A stretch of 64,000 bases of DNA, from the IMG/VR virus record IMGVR_UViG_3300031227_000028, positions 18,857 through 82,856 of that record. One strand, given 5' to 3'. Shown here piece by piece: positions 26,894 to 34,220 of this stretch; position 1 is the first letter of the stretch; every line of letters begins with the position of its first letter. Under the pieces are notes generated by a model that was not told the DNA's origin, did not search any database, and saw only the letters and a program-made list of their open reading frames with translations. The stretch is from a virus. The translations under genes and the position numbers were made by a program.

Positions 26894-27354
26894 AAACTAT
26901 AGAAGAATTACAAAAACGTTTAGAAGGTGCCTTTAAACATAGTAATTTTTTTGATTCTTTACATGAAGTTAATGAAGTAAAAAAAGTTATTGGTGCAAAG
27001 GAATTAACTAAATTTTTAAAAAAGAAAATTAATATTATAAAAAAAGAAAAAAGAGAATATAATTTAAAAGTCAAAAATATTAGAATTAAATATGGTTCAT
27101 TTAACGAATATATATATGAAGAAGCTTTACAATATATAACTCATAGTTATAAAGTAGGAGAAATTGTTGTTGTTGAATATTGTGATTCATATAAAGCCCT
27201 TAAAATACATAAAATAACAAAAAAAGGTTATGATTTATGGGATGGAAATAAATTGGCCACAATAATGAAAATACCAGAATCTAGTATATTAGGTTATGGA
27301 CATAATTTAAATAAAATAATTAAAGAAAATGACAAAAAGAAGGTCAAAAATTAA
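26890..27354 (+). CDS. Hypothetical protein
   Basis: ATGA overlap; 154 aa. Confidence 0.6.
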   Translation: MKTIEELQKRLEGAFKHSNFFDSLHEVNEVKKVIGAKELTKFLKKKINIIKKEKREYNLKVKNIRIKYGSFNEYIYEEALQYITHSYKVGEIVVVEYCDSYKALKIHKITKKGYDLWDGNKLATIMKIPESSILGYGHNLNKIIKENDKKKVKN

Positions 27355-27448
27355 TTCAACTTTTTTTCTTGATATAATTGGTGAAGATAAAGTTGATAAA
27401 AAGAAATATAAAAAAACAGATAAATATAAACCCAACGATTATTTTATG

Positions 27449-27485
27449 TAAATAATATTATTTAATACAAACATTTATATATTAG
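27449..27485 (+). promoter_or_regulatory. tRNA operon A promoter (16-bp palindrome + TATA)
   Basis: TAAATAATATTATTTAATACAAACATTTATATATTAG, identical to 29030-29066. Confidence 0.85.
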
Positions 27486-27498
27486 TTGTTATATTATT

Positions 27499-27567
27499 AT
27501 GAATATGTATAAGACAACAAGTTTAACCAATATGTGTATGAGTAATTTATTACTTGCGTCATTTTAG
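27499..27567 (+). CDS. Putative leader peptide A, MNMYKTTSLTNMCMSNLLLASF
   Basis: Starts near the predicted TSS; 19/22 residues are M/N/L/S/A/T/C, the amino acids of operon A tRNAs. Confidence 0.65.
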   Translation: MNMYKTTSLTNMCMSNLLLASF

Positions 27568-27618
27568 TTATAACTATGTTGTTAAGCTTATTCTTTTTAT
27601 TTATCTGTTTAACAACAG
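27509..27618 (+). promoter_or_regulatory. Attenuator-like alternative hairpins, operon A
   Basis: ATAAG/CTTAT, ACAACA/TGTTGT, GAGTAA/TTACTT stem followed by U-tract; rival pairing TGTTGTTAA(27577)/TTAACAACA(27609). Confidence 0.6.
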
Positions 27619-27640
27619 GTTGAAATATATTAAAATTTAT

Positions 27641-27716
27641 AGAAGTGTAGGCTAGTCAGGTCAAAGTCACGCGGCTCATGACCGTGAGAACGTTGGTTCA
27701 AATCCGACCACTTCTA
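27641..27716 (+). tRNA. tRNA-Met(CAT), A1:U72, initiator-like
   Basis: Cloverleaf; CGCGG-CT CAT GA-CCGTG; no encoded CCA. Confidence 0.9.
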
Positions 27717-27736
27717 TTTTGTTTAAATGTACATTT

Positions 27737-27821
27737 AAATAAACGTGATAAAAATAATTACCTACCGTTTAGAAACGAAAGGAGGAGTGATTCCCTCGTT
27801 GCAAGGAATTATTGTTTATTT
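27737..27821 (+). ncRNA. Candidate multi-stem RNA between tRNA-Met and tRNA-Asn
   Basis: AAATAAAC/GTTTATTT, AATAATT/AATTATT, CCT/AGG enclosing CGTTT/AAACG and GAGG/CCTC hairpins. Confidence 0.35.
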
Positions 27822-27826
27822 TTATT

Positions 27827-27897
27827 GCCGATGTAGTATAATGGTATTATACCTGGCTGTTGACCAGATGATAGGGGTTCAATTCCCTTCGTCGGCG
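27827..27897 (+). tRNA. tRNA-Asn(GTT)
   Basis: GCCGATG/CGTCGGC; CT GTT GA loop. Confidence 0.92.
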
Positions 27898-27903
27898 TTT
27901 TAT

Positions 27904-28024
27904 ACGTGTGTGGCTGATTGGTAAAAGCGCTGGACTTAGAATGAAAATTCGTCTACAAGATGTTTTTACATAAGTTATCCAGTTTCCTAAGTGGATGTTG
28001 TGTGTTCAATTCATACCACACGTA
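27904..28024 (+). tRNA. tRNA-Leu(TAG) with 36-nt BHB intron (27941-27976)
   Basis: ACGTGTG/CACACGT; long variable arm; intron at 37/38 with CTTA/TAAG helix and GAA/TTA bulges. Confidence 0.9.
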
Positions 28025-28031
28025 TTTTTAT

Positions 28032-28115
28032 GCTACGATGGCTCAATATGGCACAGCAACAGATTGCTAATCTGTGAGACAATAACTCTTTTCGGTTCAA
28101 ATCCGAATCGTAGCG
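28032..28115 (+). tRNA. tRNA-Ser(GCT)
   Basis: GCTACGA/TCGTAGC; long variable arm; G73. Confidence 0.92.
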
Positions 28116-28116
28116 T

Positions 28117-28204
28117 TGAAGGAGAAGCTAAAAATGGTCTTATTGGAAGCAAGAGGCAATGCTTGACGAAGAGAAACTTATAACTGTAGCGGGTTATACA
28201 TTCA
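28117..28204 (+). ncRNA. Candidate structured RNA between the two tRNA-Ser genes
   Basis: TGAA/TTCA closing; TCTT/AAGA + AAGCA/TGCTT arm; TATAAC/GTTATA arm. Confidence 0.3.
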
Positions 28205-28213
28205 TTATTTTTT

Positions 28214-28294
28214 GCTAACAAAGCGAATGGTAAGCGTGCCGTCTTGAAAACGGTTGGTCCTTGCGGCTCGTCAGTTCGAATCTGGCTGTTAGCG
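28214..28294 (+). tRNA. tRNA-Ser(TGA)
   Basis: GCTAACA/TGTTAGC; CT TGA AA; long variable arm; A at position 8. Confidence 0.88.
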
Positions 28295-28323
28295 TTATTA
28301 AAATAAAAAAAATATAAATTATT

Positions 28324-28397
28324 GGGCGAATAGTTAAATCTGGTATAACGTCCCGCTTGCAACGGGGAGGCTTCGGGTTCAAATCCCGATTTGTCCA
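28324..28397 (+). tRNA. tRNA-Ala(TGC)
   Basis: G3:U70 identity pair; CT TGC AA. Confidence 0.93.
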
Positions 28398-28406
28398 TAT
28401 ATTAAA

Positions 28407-28607
28407 ATGAGTTATGATAAAAATCATACAAAAGACGATTGTGATAAATGTCTTGAAAGGGTTGGAAAAGAAAATTTAACACCTATTAAGTTTTTATATC
28501 TTGATAGGAATGATTTAATGCATCCTGATTATTATCATAACGCAACTAAAGCACAAAAAGATTACAAATTATATTATGTTTGTAAAAATTGTTTAAAAAA
28601 TTATTAA
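28407..28607 (+). CDS. Small Zn-binding protein inside tRNA operon A
   Basis: CDKC...CKNC; exactly fills the Ala-Thr spacer. Confidence 0.65.
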   Translation: MSYDKNHTKDDCDKCLERVGKENLTPIKFLYLDRNDLMHPDYYHNATKAQKDYKLYYVCKNCLKNY

Positions 28608-28608
28608 T

Positions 28609-28682
28609 GCACGTGTGGCACAGTGGTCTACTGCGTCTGCCTTGTAAGCAGAATTACCCCAGTTCAAATCTGGGTACGTGCT
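28609..28682 (+). tRNA. tRNA-Thr(TGT)
   Basis: GCACGTG/TACGTGC; CT TGT AA. Confidence 0.93.
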
Positions 28683-28688
28683 TTTTAT

Positions 28689-28760
28689 GCATCATTGGGC
28701 AAGTGGTAAGTCGTCTGTCTGCAAAACAGAAGAACCCCGGTTCAATTCCGGGATGATGCT
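28689..28760 (+). tRNA. tRNA-Cys(GCA)
   Basis: GCATCAT/ATGATGC; U73. Confidence 0.93.
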
Positions 28761-28761
28761 T

Positions 28762-29046
28762 ATGGTAAAATATAAAAAAAAATATGGGCATGAATATCCA
28801 ACATTAACAGTTCCAATGAAATCACTTCAAGAAGAAAATTTATTTATTAATCCTTATTGGAATGAATGGAATACTCAAAAAGATAGTTTAAGAGTTATAT
28901 GTGATAATAAAAAAATAGTTAAACAAAATAAAAATAGAATACATAAATTTTCAGTTTGGGATATTAGAGAAAAAGGAATACAAGAAAAAAATAAAAAAAA
29001 ATTAATTATAAGAAAGAAAAGAAAATTATTAAATAATATTATTTAA
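28762..29046 (+). CDS. Basic hypothetical protein (94 aa) ending operon A
   Basis: ATG 2 nt after tRNA-Cys; the track's upstream extension overlaps tRNAs. Confidence 0.6.
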   Translation: MVKYKKKYGHEYPTLTVPMKSLQEENLFINPYWNEWNTQKDSLRVICDNKKIVKQNKNRIHKFSVWDIREKGIQEKNKKKLIIRKKRKLLNNII

Positions 29047-29066
29047 TACAAACATTTATATATTAG
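29030..29066 (+). promoter_or_regulatory. tRNA operon B promoter (16-bp palindrome + TATA)
   Basis: 37/37 identical to 27449-27485. Confidence 0.85.
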
Positions 29067-29106
29067 ATATGGTTTTATATAATTATAATAAATAATCTTA
29101 ATATTA

Positions 29107-29304
29107 ATTTATTAAGAAATATTAAATAACTAGATAATTATAGGTGTTATCCCAATCATATTAAAATGAACATACAAGAATGGAGACAGGACGGGGAAAG
29201 AGGCTTTGACATAGTGTTTAAGCCTATCTATCGTTAGTCCTTCCATGGTTCATATCAATTTCTAAATAAATAAAAAAGAACATTGGCCATGTGCCATGGA
29301 ATTC
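29107..29304 (+). promoter_or_regulatory. Attenuator-like alternative hairpins, operon B
   Basis: ATGAAC/GTTCAT, ATGGA/TCCAT, AGGAC/GTCCT, AGGCTT/AAGCCT; rival pairing TTCCATGG(29241)/CCATGGAA(29294). Confidence 0.6.
29166..29237 (+). CDS. Putative leader peptide B, MNIQEWRQDGERGFDIVFKPIYR
   Basis: AAAATG context; residues 3-23 all belong to the operon B tRNA set. Confidence 0.65.
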   Translation: MNIQEWRQDGERGFDIVFKPIYR

Positions 29305-29318
29305 TAAAAAAAATATAC

Positions 29319-29389
29319 AGTCGTATAGTTTAATGGTAAAATTATCCGTTTACACCGGATGGCTATGAGTTCAATTCTCATTGCGACTA
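29319..29389 (+). tRNA. tRNA-Val(TAC)
   Basis: AGTCGTA/TGCGACT; TT TAC AC. Confidence 0.9.
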
Positions 29390-29403
29390 TAATAAACCTT
29401 TAT

Positions 29404-29476
29404 GCTCTAATGGTCTAGTGGACAATGACATCTGGCTTTCGACCAGAAGACCTGAGTTCAATTCTCGGTTGGGGTA
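29404..29476 (+). tRNA. tRNA-Glu(TTC)
   Basis: CT TTC GA; acceptor stem with three G:U pairs. Confidence 0.88.
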
Positions 29477-29482
29477 CTTTAC

Positions 29483-29557
29483 TGGGTGGTGGTCTAGTTT
29501 GGCTAAGACTCTCGACTTGGACTCGAGAAACCGGGGGTTCAAATCCTCCCCATCCAA
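29483..29557 (+). tRNA. tRNA-Pro(TGG)
   Basis: CTCGA-CT TGG AC-TCGAG; U1:A72; A37. Confidence 0.88.
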
Positions 29558-29567
29558 TATTTATTTT

Positions 29568-29639
29568 GCCTGTGTAGTGTAATGGCTATCACATGAGACT
29601 GTCTATCTCAAAATTTGGGTTCAATTCCCAGCATGGGCG
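29568..29639 (+). tRNA. tRNA-Asp(GTC)
   Basis: GCCTGTG/CATGGGC; G73; U37. Confidence 0.9.
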
Positions 29640-29643
29640 TTAT

Positions 29644-29718
29644 GGAAGTATAGCTTAATCTGGTTAAAGCACCGGTCTTATATACCGTTGAATCTGGGTT
29701 CAAATCCCAGTATTTCCA
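29644..29718 (+). tRNA. tRNA-Ile(TAT)
   Basis: GGAAGTA/TATTTCC; CT TAT AT. Confidence 0.9.
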
Positions 29719-29723
29719 TTTAT

Positions 29724-29796
29724 GGACGTATGGCTAAGTGGTTAAGGCAGTCGACTGATATTCGAAAGAACACCGGTTCAAATCCGGTTATGTCCA
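29724..29796 (+). tRNA. tRNA-Ile(GAT)
   Basis: GGACGTA/TATGTCC; CT GAT AT. Confidence 0.9.
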
Positions 29797-29802
29797 TTTT
29801 AT

Positions 29803-29912
29803 GCACCCATAGTCTAAACTGGAAGGGCTCTTGGCTTCGATACAATTGTATGGCTAGTAAGACGCTTTTTTGAAGATACCAAGGTATCCGGGTTCAAATC
29901 CCGGTGGGTGCT
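29803..29912 (+). tRNA. tRNA-Arg(TCG) with 37-nt BHB-like intron (29841-29877)
   Basis: GCACCCA/TGGGTGC; intron at 37/38 with CTTC/GAAG helix and GAT/ATA bulges. Confidence 0.88.
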
Positions 29913-29917
29913 TTTAT

Positions 29918-29991
29918 GTGAATGTAGCAAAACGGTTTAATGCACTCGACTTTTAATCGAGAGACTGAGGGTTCAAATCCCTTCATTCACA
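29918..29991 (+). tRNA. tRNA-Lys(TTT)
   Basis: GTGAATG/CATTCAC; CT TTT AA. Confidence 0.93.
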
Positions 29992-29998
29992 TTTTTAT

Positions 29999-30071
29999 AG
30001 GGTAGTGGTCTAGTGGACAATGACATCTGACTTTGGATCAGAAAACGGCAGTTCAATTCTGCCCTACCCCA
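29999..30071 (+). tRNA. tRNA-Gln(TTG)
   Basis: CT TTG GA; A1-C72 mismatch. Confidence 0.9.
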
Positions 30072-30076
30072 TAATT

Positions 30077-30148
30077 GCTTGCATAGCATAACGGTTAATG
30101 CTTCAGGTTGTGGTCCTGATAATCTGGGTTCAATTCCCAGTGTAAGCT
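30077..30148 (+). tRNA. tRNA-His(GTG)
   Basis: GCTTGCA/TGTAAGC; no encoded G-1; U73. Confidence 0.9.
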
Positions 30149-30155
30149 TTTTAAT

Positions 30156-30228
30156 GGACATATAGCATAATGGGAGTGCGCTGAGCTGAAGCCTCAGTAT
30201 TGTTGGAGTTCGACTCTCCATATGTCCA
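30156..30228 (+). tRNA. tRNA-Phe(GAA)
   Basis: GGACATA/TATGTCC; CT GAA GC. Confidence 0.92.
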
Positions 30229-30238
30229 TCATATTAAA

Positions 30239-30745
30239 ATGGCATACGAACTATATAAAATAAAAAAGGATAAAGAAAATTATTTTAAAGATTGGTCTAG
30301 TGATAAACTTTTAACTTTAACTGACGAAATAAAAGAAGTAGTCTATAAAAAGTATTTAGTTAAATGTGATGTTTTTAAAAGAGATAATTATAGTTGTCAA
30401 AATATTAATTGTAAAAATTTAAATAGTCCATTAACAATGCATCATGTTAAATTTCAAAAAAATGGTGGAGAACATAAAATAAAAAATTGTGTAACTTTAT
30501 GTGAACCATGTCACGTTTTATTTCATAGAGCTAGAACAGCAATTACTTATAAAAATAATAAATATCTTCCTATTCATATTAGAGGTAAAACTTTTATGTT
30601 AGATAGACAAGATAAAATTAACTGGAAAGAAATTAAAAGTCATATGAGAAAACTTAGAAAAACTTTAAGAAAAGAAAGAATTTATTTAAGTTGGAAAGAT
30701 ATGAATTTATTAATGAAATTTTTAGAATTAAATTTTGAAGATTAG
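30239..30745 (+). CDS. HNH endonuclease inserted in tRNA operon B
   Basis: VFKRDNYSCQ...C, TMHHV...GG...NCVTLCEPCH...H; start moved to the ATG after tRNA-Phe. Confidence 0.85.
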   Translation: MAYELYKIKKDKENYFKDWSSDKLLTLTDEIKEVVYKKYLVKCDVFKRDNYSCQNINCKNLNSPLTMHHVKFQKNGGEHKIKNCVTLCEPCHVLFHRARTAITYKNNKYLPIHIRGKTFMLDRQDKINWKEIKSHMRKLRKTLRKERIYLSWKDMNLLMKFLELNFED

Positions 30746-30750
30746 TTTAT

Positions 30751-30825
30751 GTATCTGTAGTGTAGTTTGGTCTATCATCTGGGACTTCCAATTCTGGGAC
30801 GTGGGTTCGAATCCCACCGGGTACA
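30751..30825 (+). tRNA. tRNA-Gly(TCC)
   Basis: GTATCTG/CGGGTAC; A73; G:U-rich anticodon stem. Confidence 0.85.
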
Positions 30826-30832
30826 TTTTTAA

Positions 30833-30903
30833 CCGCTCGAGATATTTGGTAATCATACGAGGCTGTAACCCTTGTTCTATCGGTTCAATTCCGGTCGGGT
30901 GGA
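30833..30903 (+). tRNA. tRNA-Tyr(GTA), archaeal/eukaryal type
   Basis: C1:G72, A73, short variable loop; A8. Confidence 0.88.
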
Positions 30904-30911
30904 TTTTTAAT

Positions 30912-30984
30912 GGGCTGTTGGTGAAATCTGGTATCATATTTGGCTCCAGACCAAATGTTATGGGTTCAAATCCCATGCAACCCA
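30912..30984 (+). tRNA. tRNA-Trp(CCA)
   Basis: TTTGG-CT CCA GA-CCAAA; A73. Confidence 0.9.
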
Positions 30985-31020
30985 TATATAAAAGCTTTAT
31001 AAAGGCTTTATAAACCCTTT

Positions 31021-31106
31021 TTCTATTATATACTCTATCATCTAAACCTTTATATATGTATACTGCTTTATTATAATTATAATTATAATTGATTGGAGAT
31101 GACAAA
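31021..31106 (+). promoter_or_regulatory. Repeated promoter/leader cassette
   Basis: Near-identical to 22826-22918. Confidence 0.75.
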
Positions 31107-31715
31107 ATGAATACATATGAAAAAAAAATTATGAATGAAATTGAAGGAGATTATGAATCAAATTTTATTTTAATTCCATTAGGACAATGTGAATTTTGTG
31201 GTCATAAATCAAAGATGGGTTATGAAGTAGTTCATAAAATTACTAAAAAAGTTTTAAAAGTTGGAACAACTTGTGTTTATACTTTAGTTAATCTTAACAA
31301 ACAACAAAAAAGAATTTTAGATAATATTATTAAAAAACAAAAACACGATTTAAAATATGCTAGTATAAAAAAATACTTAGAAGCTAAACATAAAGATGAA
31401 TTAATTACATCAAATCAAAGTTACAATAGACAACATCATTGTCATGACGAAATTATAAATGAAACTGAAGAATGGGTATTTTACAAAGTTGTTGATGATG
31501 AAACAAAAGAAGTATATGCAAATACTCAAAGTACAAAAGAAAAATATTATTCAGTTAATTATATTGTTGATTATTCATATCATTCAGTACAAACACAAAA
31601 AAATGTTGTAAGTCAAATATTAAATAAAATCAACAACACCCAATCAAATATAAATAACTATTGGTTTGAAACATATAAAGAATTAACATCAGTAGATTTA
31701 AAAAATTTAAAATGA
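31107..31715 (+). CDS. Hypothetical protein with Zn-binding N-terminus
   Basis: CEFCGH...VGTTC. Confidence 0.65.
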   Translation: MNTYEKKIMNEIEGDYESNFILIPLGQCEFCGHKSKMGYEVVHKITKKVLKVGTTCVYTLVNLNKQQKRILDNIIKKQKHDLKYASIKKYLEAKHKDELITSNQSYNRQHHCHDEIINETEEWVFYKVVDDETKEVYANTQSTKEKYYSVNYIVDYSYHSVQTQKNVVSQILNKINNTQSNINNYWFETYKELTSVDLKNLK

Positions 31716-32192: not shown

Positions 32193-32855
32193 ATGGATAA
32201 ATCAATAAAATTACTAAAAGAACATTGTATATTTACTAATCCAGAAGATTGTTATGTATTATTTGCGATTGCACGTAGGAAAAACAACCTATACTTAACG
32301 AATAGTCAAGAGGTGGTGTTTAGACAAGTGATAAAAAATAATGAAAATATCGAGCGTAAATACAATAAATTAATATCTCAATGTAATGATTATCAATATA
32401 CTGATGGAAAAACAGATATAAAAAGAAAATTAAATTTTTATGTTTATGTTTCAGTAAATTCACGAAATGCATTAAAAGCTTATATTGAACTTCAAAAAAG
32501 ATTTAATCAATATGTATTTGAGCTATTAAAAAATAATGATAATTATCATTTATTTAAACGTCTTGATTCAATATGGTTATCTGATTTAATGAAGCCAAAT
32601 TGTAAAAGTAGTAAAAGATTTTTATTAGATATTGATACTAAAGAACAAGAAAAAATAGATAAGATAAGTGGGTTATTAGATAAAGTTACTTTAACAATTA
32701 AATGTTATAAGAATGAAACTAAAAATGGATTTCATTATATTATGGACCCATTTGACAAACAAAAATTTCATAATCTATTAACTGAAAATAATTTAAAAGA
32801 TATTTGTGAAGTAAAAACAGATGGATTATTTTTTGTAGAGAATTTAGGTGAATAA
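32193..32855 (+). CDS. Hypothetical protein with AEP-like catalytic motifs
   Basis: FLLDID and ETKNGFHYI. Confidence 0.5.
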   Translation: MDKSIKLLKEHCIFTNPEDCYVLFAIARRKNNLYLTNSQEVVFRQVIKNNENIERKYNKLISQCNDYQYTDGKTDIKRKLNFYVYVSVNSRNALKAYIELQKRFNQYVFELLKNNDNYHLFKRLDSIWLSDLMKPNCKSSKRFLLDIDTKEQEKIDKISGLLDKVTLTIKCYKNETKNGFHYIMDPFDKQKFHNLLTENNLKDICEVKTDGLFFVENLGE

Positions 32856-32858
32856 AAA

Positions 32859-34220
32859 ATGAGAGAAAAGATAAAAATTCCAGATAATGTAACAAATATT
32901 ATGTCTCACCTTATAGCTCATGGTTATGATGCATATATTATTGGTGGGGCAATAAGAGATTACTTTCTTGGAATAATTCCTCACGATTGGGATTTATTTA
33001 CAAATTGTCCTGACTTAGTTAATGAGTTTCCAGAAGGAAATGTAATTGGTGGAGAAGAAAGACAAGCAAAGATTTTAACTGTGATAGTGGACGGAATAGA
33101 AGTATCACAATATCGAGCAAATGGTGAACGAACAGAAGTAGGAAATGATTTGGAAACTCATTTATCTACTTGTGATTATAATATCAATGCAATGGCATGT
33201 GATATAAATGGAAACATCATAGATTTACATGGTGGAATATTTGATTTAAAACATTGGACATTTGAATTTGTTGGTGATGGAAACCAAAGAATAAAAGAAG
33301 ACCCTCTACGAATATTAAGAGGTATAAGACTTATTCTGAAGAACCGATTACATCCAAGCCTGGAAACAGAAACAATTTTAGAAGAGAATGGTATTAAGTT
33401 ATATGAGTTACCAAAAGAAAGAATCCGAGAAGAATTTCTTAAACTTTTAAAATATGAAAAATGTTTTGATATATTAAAAGAATTTGAATTGTTAAAATAT
33501 ATCATTCCAGATATTGAAAAGTCATATAACATGAACGGTGGCGATTATCATGATGAAACTGTTTTTGAACACATGAATTATTCATTTAAAGAAGCTTGTA
33601 AGATAACTGATAATGTATTTTTTAGATTAGCTGCAGGACTTCATGATTTTGGTAAGATTTCTGCTATATCAAGAACAGTATTAATTGACCCTAGAACTAT
33701 GAGAGCTATAGAAGATTCAAAGACACATTTCTATGAGCATGAAAGAATTGGTGCAGAAAAAATTGAAGAATGGATGAGAGAATATAAATTTGCTGAAAAG
33801 GAAATTAAATATGTTGTTACTTTAGTGCGAACTCATATGTGGGCTTGGACTGAAACAATTTCAAAACGGTCTTATATCAAACATTTCAAGAAATTTGAAG
33901 ATGCAGATATTGATATTATGGATTTTGTTACTATGACTTATTGCGACAATCAAGGTAATATGAAAAACTCTAGAATTAAATTTGCTGATTGGGTAAGAGA
34001 TAGTCCAATTCATAAAAAATATTATGAGTTAAAACATACTAATGAACCATTTTCAGTTAAAGATTTAGCAGTTGGCGGTAAAGATTTAATTCAATTAGGA
34101 TTTAAACCTGGACCAGAAATGGGAAAACTTTTAAAAAAACTTTTTGAAAAAGTAATGATATGTGAAATTAAAAATGATAAACGTGAATTAATTACATTTT
34201 TAAAAGAATTTAAGGAATGA
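32859..34220 (+). CDS. cca: Class II tRNA nucleotidyltransferase (CCA-adding) with HD domain
   Basis: GGAIRD...DWD, D.NINAMA, EDPLRILR, ERI, LHDFGK, GGKDL...G..PG. Confidence 0.88.
   Translation: MREKIKIPDNVTNIMSHLIAHGYDAYIIGGAIRDYFLGIIPHDWDLFTNCPDLVNEFPEGNVIGGEERQAKILTVIVDGIEVSQYRANGERTEVGNDLETHLSTCDYNINAMACDINGNIIDLHGGIFDLKHWTFEFVGDGNQRIKEDPLRILRGIRLILKNRLHPSLETETILEENGIKLYELPKERIREEFLKLLKYEKCFDILKEFELLKYIIPDIEKSYNMNGGDYHDETVFEHMNYSFKEACKITDNVFFRLAAGLHDFGKISAISRTVLIDPRTMRAIEDSKTHFYEHERIGAEKIEEWMREYKFAEKEIKYVVTLVRTHMWAWTETISKRSYIKHFKKFEDADIDIMDFVTMTYCDNQGNMKNSRIKFADWVRDSPIHKKYYELKHTNEPFSVKDLAVGGKDLIQLGFKPGPEMGKLLKKLFEKVMICEIKNDKRELITFLKEFKE

Follow-up and report, generated by a model that had tools for sequence, protein, structure and literature searches.

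Organization of the tRNA units and their leader reading frames

The window—by which term we refer to the whole stretch of 64,000 nt analyzed—contains 22 tRNA genes arranged in two units, detected by ARAGORN with introns and in agreement with Rfam; the sets found were the same as those that the first-pass annotation had assigned to its operons A and B. Each unit contains an ORF, and each is preceded by a promoter and a short leader ORF (Table 1). The virus also possesses an RFC, along with TATA-type promoters and intron-bearing tRNAs, and is a tailed, probably archaeal virus.

Table 1. Features of the two tRNA units and their leader regions (positions in the window)
Feature	Position	Strand	Description
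Promoter repeat, copy 1	27449..27485	+	37 bp, archaeal-type, A-rich BRE-like stretch; TATA box TTTATATA at 27474-27481
Leader ORF A	27499..27567	+	22 aa, MNMYKTTSLTNMCMSNLLLASF; between promoter and unit A
Region 1	27512..27520	+	Thr-Thr codons (AGACAACAA); complementary to 5' arm of spacer hairpin A
Spacer hairpin A	27577..27617	+	11-bp stem (27577-27587 with 27607-27617), 19-nt U-rich loop
T5 tract	27594..27598	+	In loop of hairpin A; candidate archaeal termination signal
tRNA unit A	27640..28760	+	Met, Asn, Leu(TAG, intron), Ser(GCT), Ser(TGA), Ala, 66-aa ORF, Thr, Cys (ARAGORN, Rfam)
66-aa ORF	28407-28607		Inside unit A, between Ala and Thr tRNAs
Promoter repeat, copy 2	29030..29066	+	37 bp; TATA box at 29055-29062
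Local TATA-like element	29135..29142	+	TAATTATA, read from sequence; 31 nt upstream of leader B ATG
Leader ORF B	29166..29237	+	23 aa, MNIQEWRQDGERGFDIVFKPIYR; between promoter and unit B
Spacer hairpin B	29241..29301	+	Outer stem of two paired CCATGG copies; A/U-rich loop
tRNA unit B	29319..30985	+	Val, Glu, Pro, Asp, Ile(TAT), Ile(GAT), Arg(TCG, intron), Lys, Gln, His, Phe, HNH-like ORF, Gly, Tyr, Trp
HNH-like ORF	30239-30745		Conserved; inside unit B, between Phe and Gly tRNAs

The composition of each leader matches the tRNAs of its own unit. In leader A, 19 of the 22 residues (18 of 21 after Met1) belong to the set {M,N,L,S,A,T,C}, each of whose 7 amino acids is covered, and both Ser boxes are used; leader B has 21 consecutive residues of set B (21 of 22 after Met1), covers 12 of its 13 amino acids—the absent one being His—and uses both Ile codon types. 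The coordinates, sequences, counts, and codon usage that had been reported earlier for these two frames were all reproduced here, as was the contention that the match exceeds chance. Among the 244 ATG ORFs of 18–30 aa present in the six frames of the whole 82.9-kb genome, no other frame equaled leader A in its content of set A, nor leader B in its content of set B, so that each is the sole extreme. The binomial P values, calculated with the initiator Met excluded, were 6e-6 for leader A and 5e-4 for leader B, and when the 20 amino acids were shuffled between the two units of the window the observed score was matched in about 2 of 100,000 trials (P = 2e-5). Since each leader is the first or the longest ATG frame that ends upstream of the tRNA in its leader region, there was little freedom in the choice of the ORF.

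This match exists at the level of the amino acid and not of the anticodon. Both codon boxes of Leu, of Ser, and mostly also of Arg are used in the leaders, whichever single viral tRNA is present; and the caveat previously expressed about TTA and AGA codons proved to be correct and of wider reach, in that neither Leu(TAG) nor Arg(TCG), the viral tRNAs concerned, reads the three Leu TTA and two Arg AGA codons of the window leaders. Consequently, a further supply of the viral tRNAs would not relieve stalls at those codons. A match at the amino-acid level argues against the sensing of specific cleaved isoacceptors; an attack by anticodon nucleases as the trigger is pure conjecture.

Leader composition in the rearranged arrays of related viruses

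The first-pass annotation had suggested that the leaders be compared in relatives with reshuffled tRNAs. We carried out that comparison with four distinct related viral contigs (L199, L202, L170, and L171), located by means of the portal, a tRNA-Arg intron motif, and the conserved HNH-like ORF. These contigs carry homologous but rearranged arrays and provided nine more leaders, whose composition followed the content of the arrays; in all four, as in the window, the short ORFs are situated between promoter and tRNA genes on one and the same strand. Homologs of leader A occur in L199 (MLYNTTTGMCTSDLLNSLASH) and L202 (MVNTTTLNNANMLLCSWSTN), and homologs of leader B in L199 (MSTVIWKRDREQGIGIVDVPFQYHQ, 13 of 13 amino acids covered), L202 (MNCKHFIEKIEGQQVVRGPDYR, 12 of 12), and L170 (MNTNIIFGIERVGFDRPQFNHQ, 10 of 10). 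Homologous leaders have drifted to some 25–35% identity and yet remain confined to the residues that their own unit serves. Short motifs—P.YR, ASSSF/ASF, and NLL—are shared among the peptides.

Enrichment in the own set was found in all 11 leaders of the five genomes, with P values from 4e-7 to 1e-2; and the amino acids of the tRNAs were present in the own leader in 89 of 90 instances, versus 24 of 110 in the foreign leader. The rule applies from codon 5 to the end, where 165 of 181 residues are in the set, whereas at codons 2–4 the proportion (12 of 33) equals the background. Where tRNAs have switched units, Trp, Tyr/Lys, and Asn/Leu appear in or vanish from the leaders along with them. Thus, Trp is confined in 5 of 5 genomes to the leader of the unit that bears tRNA-Trp, including L202, where that tRNA lies in the A-type array and W occurs in that leader alone. 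In both L170 and L171 a separate unit is made up of the Tyr-Lys-Asn-Leu tRNAs, and N, L, K, and Y abound in its leader; a Thr-Cys-Met-Ser-Ala(-Trp) unit is headed by the leader MEIETTMWTCTTTASSSF or MINATMKWTCTVASSSC; while the first unit of L170, devoid of Lys, Tyr, and Trp tRNAs, has a leader without K, Y, or W. Upon shuffling of the amino acids between units, P was at most 3e-5 in L199, L202, and L170, and in L171 the observed partition was the best among the 210 possible; overall, such shuffling gave P values of about 1e-5 in four genomes. The composition rule is, then, conserved among these viruses and co-varies with the content of the arrays.

Promoters and predicted starts of transcription and translation

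The common promoter that had been noticed before both units is an exact repeat at 27451-27485 and 29032-29066, can be extended by eye to 37 bp, and occurs in just two copies throughout the window. The TATA box of copy 1 (27474) lies 31 nt upstream of the second ATG of leader A (27505), a spacing that points to this codon as the probable true start, from which a leaderless peptide of 20 aa, MYKTTSLTNMCMSNLLLASF, would probably be translated. Copy 2 is homologous to the promoter located 31 nt upstream of the ATG of leader B' in L199. In the window, the ATG of leader B is 111 nt downstream of the start of the TATA box of that copy, so that the shared promoter is far away, and no clear ribosome-binding site was found for this leader. 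The local element TAATTATA at 29135 may be a proximal promoter for leader B, though the evidence is weak because the region is AT-rich.

Considering all the genomes, the distance from the start of the TATA box to the ATG is 30–33 nt in 6 of the 11 leaders, and the real genes as well as the leaders of the relatives have the same spacing, 29–33 nt; furthermore, GGTGA precedes two other leaders. Such a spacing is what one would expect of leaderless mRNAs, a common type in archaea (PMC4983044). Most leaders would accordingly start either at the predicted 5' end of the transcript or after GGTGA, their translation being likewise a prediction.

RNA structure and U-tracts between leaders and tRNAs

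The leader stop codons are situated 18–81 nt upstream of the first tRNA, and the intervening spacers contain hairpins that begin 2–9 nt past the stop codon and end, in most units, 8–20 nt upstream of that tRNA. Their place beside the stop codon is conserved, and the hairpins were significant in 6 of 9 cases (z from -3.1 to -5.3), with divergent stems. The fold of spacer A has -14.5 kcal/mol and a z of -3.1, with its 5' arm beginning 9 nt past the stop codon, and L199 has the same hairpin, with U5 in the loop (z -3.6). Hairpin B has -19 kcal/mol and a z of -3.9, the arm used in the duplex test starting 4 nt past the stop; at its position the relatives have unrelated stems, with z values of -5.3 (L202), -4.7 (L199), and -1.7 (L170). 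The folds of the whole leaders were weak (z -1.15 for A, -2.96 for B).

A competing pairing that involves the ORF was found in the A-type leaders only. Region 1 forms 7 bp with the 5' arm of hairpin A (RNAduplex, z -2.3 against shuffles), and the equivalent complementarity in L199 is that of ACGACAA with TGTCGT (z -1.2); in the B-type leaders, the ORF paired with the hairpin arm no better than shuffled sequences did.

In archaea, U-tracts are the terminator signal and are bound by aCPSF1, the criterion being at least 4–5 U in the nascent RNA at the termination point, and hairpins are not required (PMC8716108). Within the window, a U-tract of at least 5 precedes unit A only. T5 tracts were found at 27594-27598—where a natural variant has a longer T run—in L199 A', and in L171_1, and T4 in L199 B', L170_1, and L170_3, whereas window B, L202 A and B, L171_2, and L170_2 have no such tract. 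No canonical terminator was recognized either, the U5 of the window being inside the loop of the hairpin and not 3' of the stem.

Proposed mechanism and alternative explanations

Because the leader frame changes as tRNAs move between blocks, the leaders probably act as translated sensors of tRNA supply. The first-pass annotation had proposed a switch whereby a ribosome stalled at any codon whose tRNA is cleaved or uncharged turns on the operon that replaces that tRNA; the translated sensor tied to its tRNA set is the part of that proposal strongly supported by the tracking of reshuffled arrays, while attenuation as the output, the sign of the response, and the trigger are aspects that we infer. 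The best explanation, to which we assign a probability of roughly 0.6, is that the leader ORF is a sampler, and that slow decoding of the amino acids of a unit causes more of that unit to be made. The ORF at the head of each unit consists, from about codon 5 to the stop, almost exclusively of amino acids served downstream and contains nearly every one of them at least once; the transit time of the ribosome might thus report a shortage of any of those aminoacyl-tRNAs, in the manner of an OR gate. A ribosome that had reached the stop codon would cover the nearby 5' arm of the hairpin; an earlier stall would leave that arm free to pair and, in the A-type leaders, would also cover the competing region 1. 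The structure formed could then decide whether transcription proceeds into the tRNA genes, the presumable archaeal route being the exposure or concealment of U-rich RNA with respect to U-tract- or aCPSF1 (FttA)-dependent termination. In sum, more of the unit would be produced whenever its amino acids are decoded slowly. In-set codons continue, however, up to the stop codon, and a stall in that vicinity would resemble completion, a circumstance that counts against a readout by stalling.

The same sensor might instead act after transcription, with the folding of the hairpin altering the 5' processing by RNase P, an endonucleolytic cleavage, or the stability of the pre-tRNA rather than read-through. 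We consider this output unlikely, though deserving of attention: in most units the hairpin fills much of the interval from the stop codon to the first tRNA, a U-tract is missing from several units, and in L170_2 and L171_1 the stop codon is just 18–22 nt before tRNA-Tyr, which distance leaves no space for a terminator. Nevertheless, mainly the first tRNA would be affected, although sampling by the leader extends to the entire unit; no signal for processing was recognized; and the A-type leaders of the window and L199 do contain the U5 tract. A response of the opposite sign seems to us still more doubtful. Under that scheme, available tRNAs would allow an efficient translation of the leader, and the ribosome trailing the RNA polymerase would shield the transcript from factor-dependent termination, thus establishing a positive feedback. 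The composition rule would fit such a coupling equally well, the predicted leaderless transcripts would permit immediate ribosome loading, and the archaeal aCPSF1/FttA terminates on exposed U-rich RNA; but the ribosome departs at the stop codon, well before the first tRNA, a coupling device needs no sampling of each amino acid once, and the benefit of a positive feedback on tRNA supply is not obvious.

Two further explanations appear very improbable. If the codon string were untranslated and paired with tRNA anticodons like an array of T-box specifiers, the presence of a codon for the amino acid of each tRNA would be accounted for; against this notion, each of the 11 leaders is one frame closed by an in-frame stop, its ATG being either at the 5' end or preceded by GGTGA, many of the codons mismatch the viral anticodons, and an Rfam search of positions 27000-31500 with E values up to 1 returned only tRNAs and chance hits, with no T-box or other family at the leaders. 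T-boxes are, moreover, not known in archaea. That the match is due to chance, or that the frames encode micropeptides whose composition is unrelated to the tRNAs, is scarcely more credible: the hypothesis was indeed formed after seeing the data, and the shared short motifs could be read in that sense, but the permutation P in each of four genomes, the shift of the composition with tRNA rearrangement while the sequence drifts, and the lack of a match of the leader peptides to any protein family all speak otherwise.

Relation to known systems and significance

The closest parallels to the sampler leaders are the multivalent attenuators of enterobacteria—thrL, ilvL/ilvGMEDA, and ilvBN, along with trpL, hisL, pheL, and leuL. 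As in the thrL/ilvL class, the transcript opens with a short ORF in which the amino acids that matter to the operon are overrepresented, the progress of the ribosome would, in our proposal, be read through RNA structure near the stop codon, and in the A-type leaders a segment of the ORF is complementary to an arm of the next hairpin. The differences are nonetheless considerable: here the downstream genes are tRNAs and not bacterial biosynthetic enzymes or synthetases; up to 13 amino acids are represented about 1–3 times each, where the known leaders have runs of one to three amino acids; no 3:4 terminator hairpin followed by a U-run was recognized; and the transcripts, predicted to be leaderless, are those of a probable archaeal virus. 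With pheM of pheST, the synthetase attenuators, and the T-boxes, the present leaders would have in common that expression of a gene of the translation apparatus depends on how much of the tRNA for its amino acid is charged, but those systems are bacterial and respond to a single amino acid, and the T-boxes sense uncharged tRNA through RNA–RNA contact without translation. In tnaC, a ribosome at the end of the leader blocks a termination factor, and free tryptophan is sensed through the nascent peptide. By a tnaC/Rho-type analogy, purely inferred, occupancy of the RNA directly past the stop codon by a ribosome or by the hairpin could gate the access of aCPSF1/FttA to U-rich RNA (PMC8716108, PMC11616081).

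In the literature searched we found no published account of such a leader control of tRNA arrays and no description of leader-peptide attenuation in archaea. Viral tRNA arrays are usually seen as constitutive helpers in codon usage or as spares against tRNA-cleaving defenses, and termination works differently in archaea and bacteria. On balance we favor the view that a lineage of tailed viruses whose hosts are AT-rich archaea—probably DPANN of salt lakes and sediments—has pan-set sampler leaders, i.e., translated OR gates with one to three codons per amino acid that would co-evolve with the shuffled arrays and effect an attenuation of an archaeal, non-bacterial type. The composition rule is simple and searchable, and predicts the boundaries of the transcription units within tRNA arrays, and the leaders would provide natural multi-codon stalling reporters. 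If the proposal is true, the virus gauges the decoding capacity and makes tRNAs on demand, module by module; leader-peptide sensing would then take in viruses and tRNA genes and, provided that the assignment of the host holds, archaea as well, and tRNA genes governed by a leader peptide would be recorded for the first time in an archaeal system.

Composition of the two leaders in the window

The array of the window comprises the 22 tRNAs listed in the first-pass annotation, for which ARAGORN (introns on) and Rfam returned the same set; every amino acid has a viral tRNA, and Ser and Ile have a second one. These tRNAs constitute unit A (M, N, L, S, A, T, C) and unit B (V, E, P, D, I, R, K, Q, H, F, G, Y, W), each of them downstream of a short ORF—leader A and leader B, respectively—from whose stop codon a spacer extends to the first tRNA. 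Our reading of both leaders was identical to the earlier one, and in each leader region the leader ORF was the first or the longest ATG frame ending upstream of the tRNA. The match of each leader to its own set, put beyond chance by a rough estimate in that annotation, withstood recalculation: upon shuffling the 20 amino acids into sets of 7 and 13, the observed 39 of 43 in-set residues were reached in 2 of 100,000 shuffles. The set-A residues have a frequency of 0.37 in the long ORFs of the genome; and among 244 ATG ORFs of 18–30 aa, taken from the six frames of the whole genome, leader A was alone in having at least 19 set-A residues of 22, and leader B alone in having at least 21 set-B residues of 23.

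Recovery of related arrays

No close relative was found in the collections searched, and the nearest homolog of the viral CCA-adding enzyme had 51% identity. As an IMG/VR query that enzyme retrieved no close relative; its alignment retrieved from IMG/VR distant viruses only, with 0–5 tRNAs each, and from metagenomes mostly cellular homologs at about 30% identity. The phage collection held no relatives of this virus, the exact promoter sequence had no match in IMG/VR, and a portal search of genome contigs gave five loci, all without tRNA arrays. A portal alignment, after which whole records were searched for tRNAs, yielded the contigs L170 (18.7 kb, about 20 tRNAs), L171 (10 tRNAs), and L172, which is truncated; L199, a complete genome of 79.5 kb, came from a motif common to tRNA-Arg introns; and a conserved HNH-like ORF 3' of tRNA-Phe served as the anchor for L202. 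We left L172 out of the leader analysis because its 5' end is missing and it has no usable leader, and did not count the contigs L200 and L201 as separate genomes, since they match L170 and L202 almost exactly in leaders and tRNA order, the regions compared. Since the tRNAs of L199, L202, L170, and L171 are only 63–82% identical to those of the window, these four represent viruses different from that of the window.

Leader composition follows array content

The composition of a leader is tied by rule to the content of its array. The expectation that it would track that content when tRNAs were reshuffled was borne out in the relatives: over the 11 leaders, those of the window included, 89 of the 90 amino acids of a unit's tRNAs were found in its own leader—the sole exception being His in window B—versus 24 of 110 in the other leaders of the same genome. 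Enrichment in the own set was present in all 11 (binomial P from 4e-7 to 1e-2), and shuffling of the partitions gave P values of 3e-5 for L199, 1e-5 for L202, <1e-5 for L170, and 0.005 for L171, in which last instance the observed partition was the best of 210. The rarest residue, Trp, was confined in all five genomes to the leader of the unit bearing tRNA-Trp; thus in L202, where that tRNA lies within the A-type array (i.e., the one resembling unit A), W is present in leader A'' and absent from leader B''. By codon position, 12 of 33 residues were in-set at codons 2–4 and 165 of 181 from codon 5 to the end (Fisher P 3e-11, for a split picked post hoc); in L199 B' all 22 residues following MST belong to set B. 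The peptides are homologous yet drifted, their composition being conserved and their sequence not; W6, D9, E11, G13, I16, V17, and P20, for example, are common to the leaders of window B and L199 B'.

Leaders of the tRNA units in the related viral contigs (the initiator Met is counted)
Unit	tRNA amino acids	Leader	In-set	Covered
L199 A'	M,N,L,S,A,T,C	MLYNTTTGMCTSDLLNSLASH	17/21	7/7
L199 B'	same 13 as window B	MSTVIWKRDREQGIGIVDVPFQYHQ	22/25	13/13
L202 A''	N,M,A,T,C,W,L,S	MVNTTTLNNANMLLCSWSTN	19/20	8/8
L202 B''	V,G,Y,E,Q,P,D,I,R,K,H,F	MNCKHFIEKIEGQQVVRGPDYR	19/22	12/12
L170 unit 1	E,G,V,P,Q,R,I,F,H,D	MNTNIIFGIERVGFDRPQFNHQ	17/22	10/10
L170 unit 2	Y,K,N,L	MGIISGSKYLNNLLKLYR	10/18	4/4
L170 unit 3	T,C,M,S,A(,W)	MINATMKWTCTVASSSC	13/17	6/6
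L171 unit 1	Y,K,N,L	MAVKIGNLNLNLLKRLY	11/17	4/4
L171 unit 2	T,C,M,S,A,W	MEIETTMWTCTTTASSSF	14/18	6/6

Amino acids rather than anticodons

The match between leader and unit lies at the level of the amino acid and not of the anticodon. Under strict wobble rules the tRNAs of the own unit read 44–76% of the codons of each leader (the codons of L199 A' being read separately); every leader containing Leu or Ser uses both codon boxes, and three of the four Arg-containing B-type leaders use both Arg boxes, regardless of which single tRNA the virus supplies. As had been cautioned from the first reading, some leader codons lack a cognate viral tRNA, namely three TTA and two AGA, which codons the tRNA-Leu(TAG) and tRNA-Arg(TCG) of the window cannot read. 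This use of both boxes, together with the unreadable TTA and AGA, disfavors the earlier suggestion that the leaders sense particular isoacceptors cleaved by host anticodon nucleases. The amino-acid-level match fits either the sensing of amino-acid-wide charging or simply selection to keep one or more cognate codons for each tRNA.

The anticodon of the viral tRNA-Leu is itself variable, being TAG in the window and L199 and TAA in L202, L170, and L171; a mix of TTR and CTN codons is kept in all the Leu-containing leaders, i.e., the A-type ones of the window, L199, and L202 and the Tyr-Lys-Asn-Leu ones of L170 and L171.

Promoters and start contexts

The promoter repeat, described as 37 bp in the first-pass annotation, is indeed present before both units of the window, 35 bp of it being exactly repeated, with no further copy there; it ends with an A-rich stretch plus TTTATATA, which end looks like an archaeal BRE/TATA. 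The short ATTTCTAA motif was not enriched in the window (15 found versus 16 expected). In 6 of the 11 leaders—window A, L199 B', L202 B'', L170 units 1 and 2, and L171 unit 1—an ATG lies 30–33 nt downstream of the first base of the TATA box, and the ordinary protein genes of these viruses have the same spacing; leaderless mRNAs, the main class in several archaea (PMC4983044), are therefore predicted. GGTGA stands 4–10 nt upstream of the ATG in L199 A' and L171 unit 2, and no clear start signal was seen in window B, L202 A'', or L170 unit 3. The shared promoter is about 80 nt more distant from window leader B than from the homologous leaders, and TAATTATA lies 31 nt upstream of the ATG of that leader.

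The motif CATATTAAAATG precedes three ORFs of the window, of which two begin immediately 3' of a tRNA and one is leader B, and may be a start context for mRNAs freed by tRNA processing. The gap of 108 nt between tRNA-Met and tRNA-Asn contains a TATA-like TTTAAATA plus AGGAGGAGTGA with no clean ORF, and might represent the remnant of an internal promoter or leader.

Positions of the features
Feature	Record	Positions
Promoter repeat, copy 1	window	27451-27485
Leader A	window	27499-27567
ATG of leader A at TATA spacing	window	from 27505
Spacer A segment with differences	window	27570-27634
tRNA-Met/tRNA-Asn gap	window	27718-27825
tRNA-Leu (TAG)	window	27903-28025
tRNA-Leu (TAG)	L199	
tRNA-Leu (TAA)	L202	6248-6398
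tRNA-Leu (TAA)	L170	7913-8031
tRNA-Leu (TAA)	L171	1763-1875
CATATTAAAATG	window	28396-28409; 29155-29168; 30228-30241
Promoter repeat, copy 2	window	29032-29066
TAATTATA	window	29135
Leader B	window	29166-29237
tRNA-Arg, intron core	window	29803-29912
tRNA-Arg, intron core	L170	5503-5607
tRNA-Arg, intron core	L172	294-401
tRNA-Arg, intron core	L199	10418-10527
HNH-motif ORF	window	30239-30745
HNH-motif ORF	L199	10917-11414
HNH-motif ORF	L170	5815-6330
HNH-motif ORF	L202	8001-8507
tRNA-Asn with intron ORF	L171	1272-1760
ORF similar to that intron ORF	L172	494-905
phrog_14949 protein	window	32193-32855
CCA-adding enzyme	window	32859-34220
Non-coding stretch	L001	8330-8870

Spacer hairpins and candidate termination signals

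A single hairpin, its loop large and A/U-rich, dominates the fold of the spacer; this hairpin was significant against shuffles in three B-type units (z of -3.9 in window B, -5.3 in L202 B'', and -4.7 in L199 B') as well as in window A (-3.1), L199 A' (-3.6), and L171 unit 2 (-3.9), and weak in three other units; the stem sequences bear no relation between genomes. The 5' arm of the hairpin begins 2–9 nt downstream of the leader stop codon, a distance within reach of a terminating ribosome by standard ribosome-footprint dimensions. A-type leaders carry a stretch complementary to this arm, either at the ORF or within it (ACAACA with TGTTGT in the window, z -2.3; L171 unit 2, z -2.6; L170 unit 3, z -2.3), and in B-type leaders such pairing was not significant. 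The leader regions were too divergent in MAFFT alignments for an alifold-type covariation analysis.

Since archaeal terminators are U-tracts, bound by aCPSF1, that require no hairpin (PMC8716108; PMC11616081), a terminator of the bacterial type is not expected here. A U5 occurs in the loop just past the 5' arm in window A and L199 A', the other units having U4 or none, and no consistent archaeal termination signal was seen across the spacers of the units. Contigs from four salt-lake DNA runs contained one variant, whose nine differences all fall in spacer A, with the T-run one longer and the covered part of the ORF unchanged.

Genome, host, and other array components

The virus record is one contig of 82,856 bp with about 25% G+C, of which the window is a part, and encodes a portal, a large terminase, a major capsid protein, and a tail tube in addition to an RFC-type clamp loader, an ATP-dependent ligase, and a class-II CCA-adding enzyme. 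The tRNA introns, the TATA-type promoters with putative leaderless starts, and the clamp loader point to an archaeal host. Portal relatives were binned with Pacearchaeota and Woesearchaeota MAGs, which binning is weak evidence for the host because other bins were bacterial. Sequence of the virus was present in salt-lake metagenomes from at least seven studies, and none of the listed runs containing it was recorded as RNA.

Introns of 36–37 nt interrupt tRNA-Leu(TAG) and tRNA-Arg(TCG) of the window at the canonical position; MFE folds did not confirm a bulge-helix-bulge in either. The tRNA-Arg introns of the window, L170, L172, and L199 have in common a TGGCTAG(T/G)A core, usable as a lineage marker in IMG/VR. 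The HNH-motif ORF directly 3' of tRNA-Phe keeps its position and sequence (38–52% identity) across four viruses, between which tRNA identity is only about 70%, and looks like a fixed array component rather than a stray homing endonuclease. The tRNA-Asn of L171 harbors a 415-nt intron with a 134-aa ORF, to which an ORF between tRNA-Asn and tRNA-Ala in L172 is similar. The CCA-adding enzyme, with an HD domain, is of a bacterial/eukaryotic class although the virus looks archaeal, and adjoins a 220-aa protein of unknown function (phrog_14949), which pairing also occurs at the loci L001, L004, L005, and L007. Cellular homologs of the enzyme (about 30% identity; L016, L030, L032, L039, L041, and others) are flanked by tRNA-Lys/tRNA-Arg on one side and tRNA-Pro/tRNA-Ala on the other in many metagenome contigs. 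In L001, a distant relative, about 500 nt of non-coding, G+C-richer sequence precede a tRNA-Pro/tRNA-Trp pair and may form a structured RNA.

Proposed mechanism

In the literature searched we found no account of tRNA arrays controlled by leader peptides, whether in phages or in archaeal viruses, nor of leader-peptide attenuation in archaea. We file the system as a variant of leader-peptide sensing outside the classical attenuator family, because its terminator feature is unconfirmed and its cargo and domain differ from those of that family. That the leader is a translated sensor tied to its tRNA set we consider probable (about 0.8); that the output of the sensor is transcription attenuation has somewhat less than an even chance, and the sign of the response is more tentative still. 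According to this proposal the leader would be translated, with its transit time signaling a shortage of any aminoacyl-tRNA of its unit; the spacer would fold differently with a stalled than with a terminating ribosome, and that fold would govern read-through or else processing of the array; and slow decoding would, as the most sensible direction, lead to a higher output of the array.
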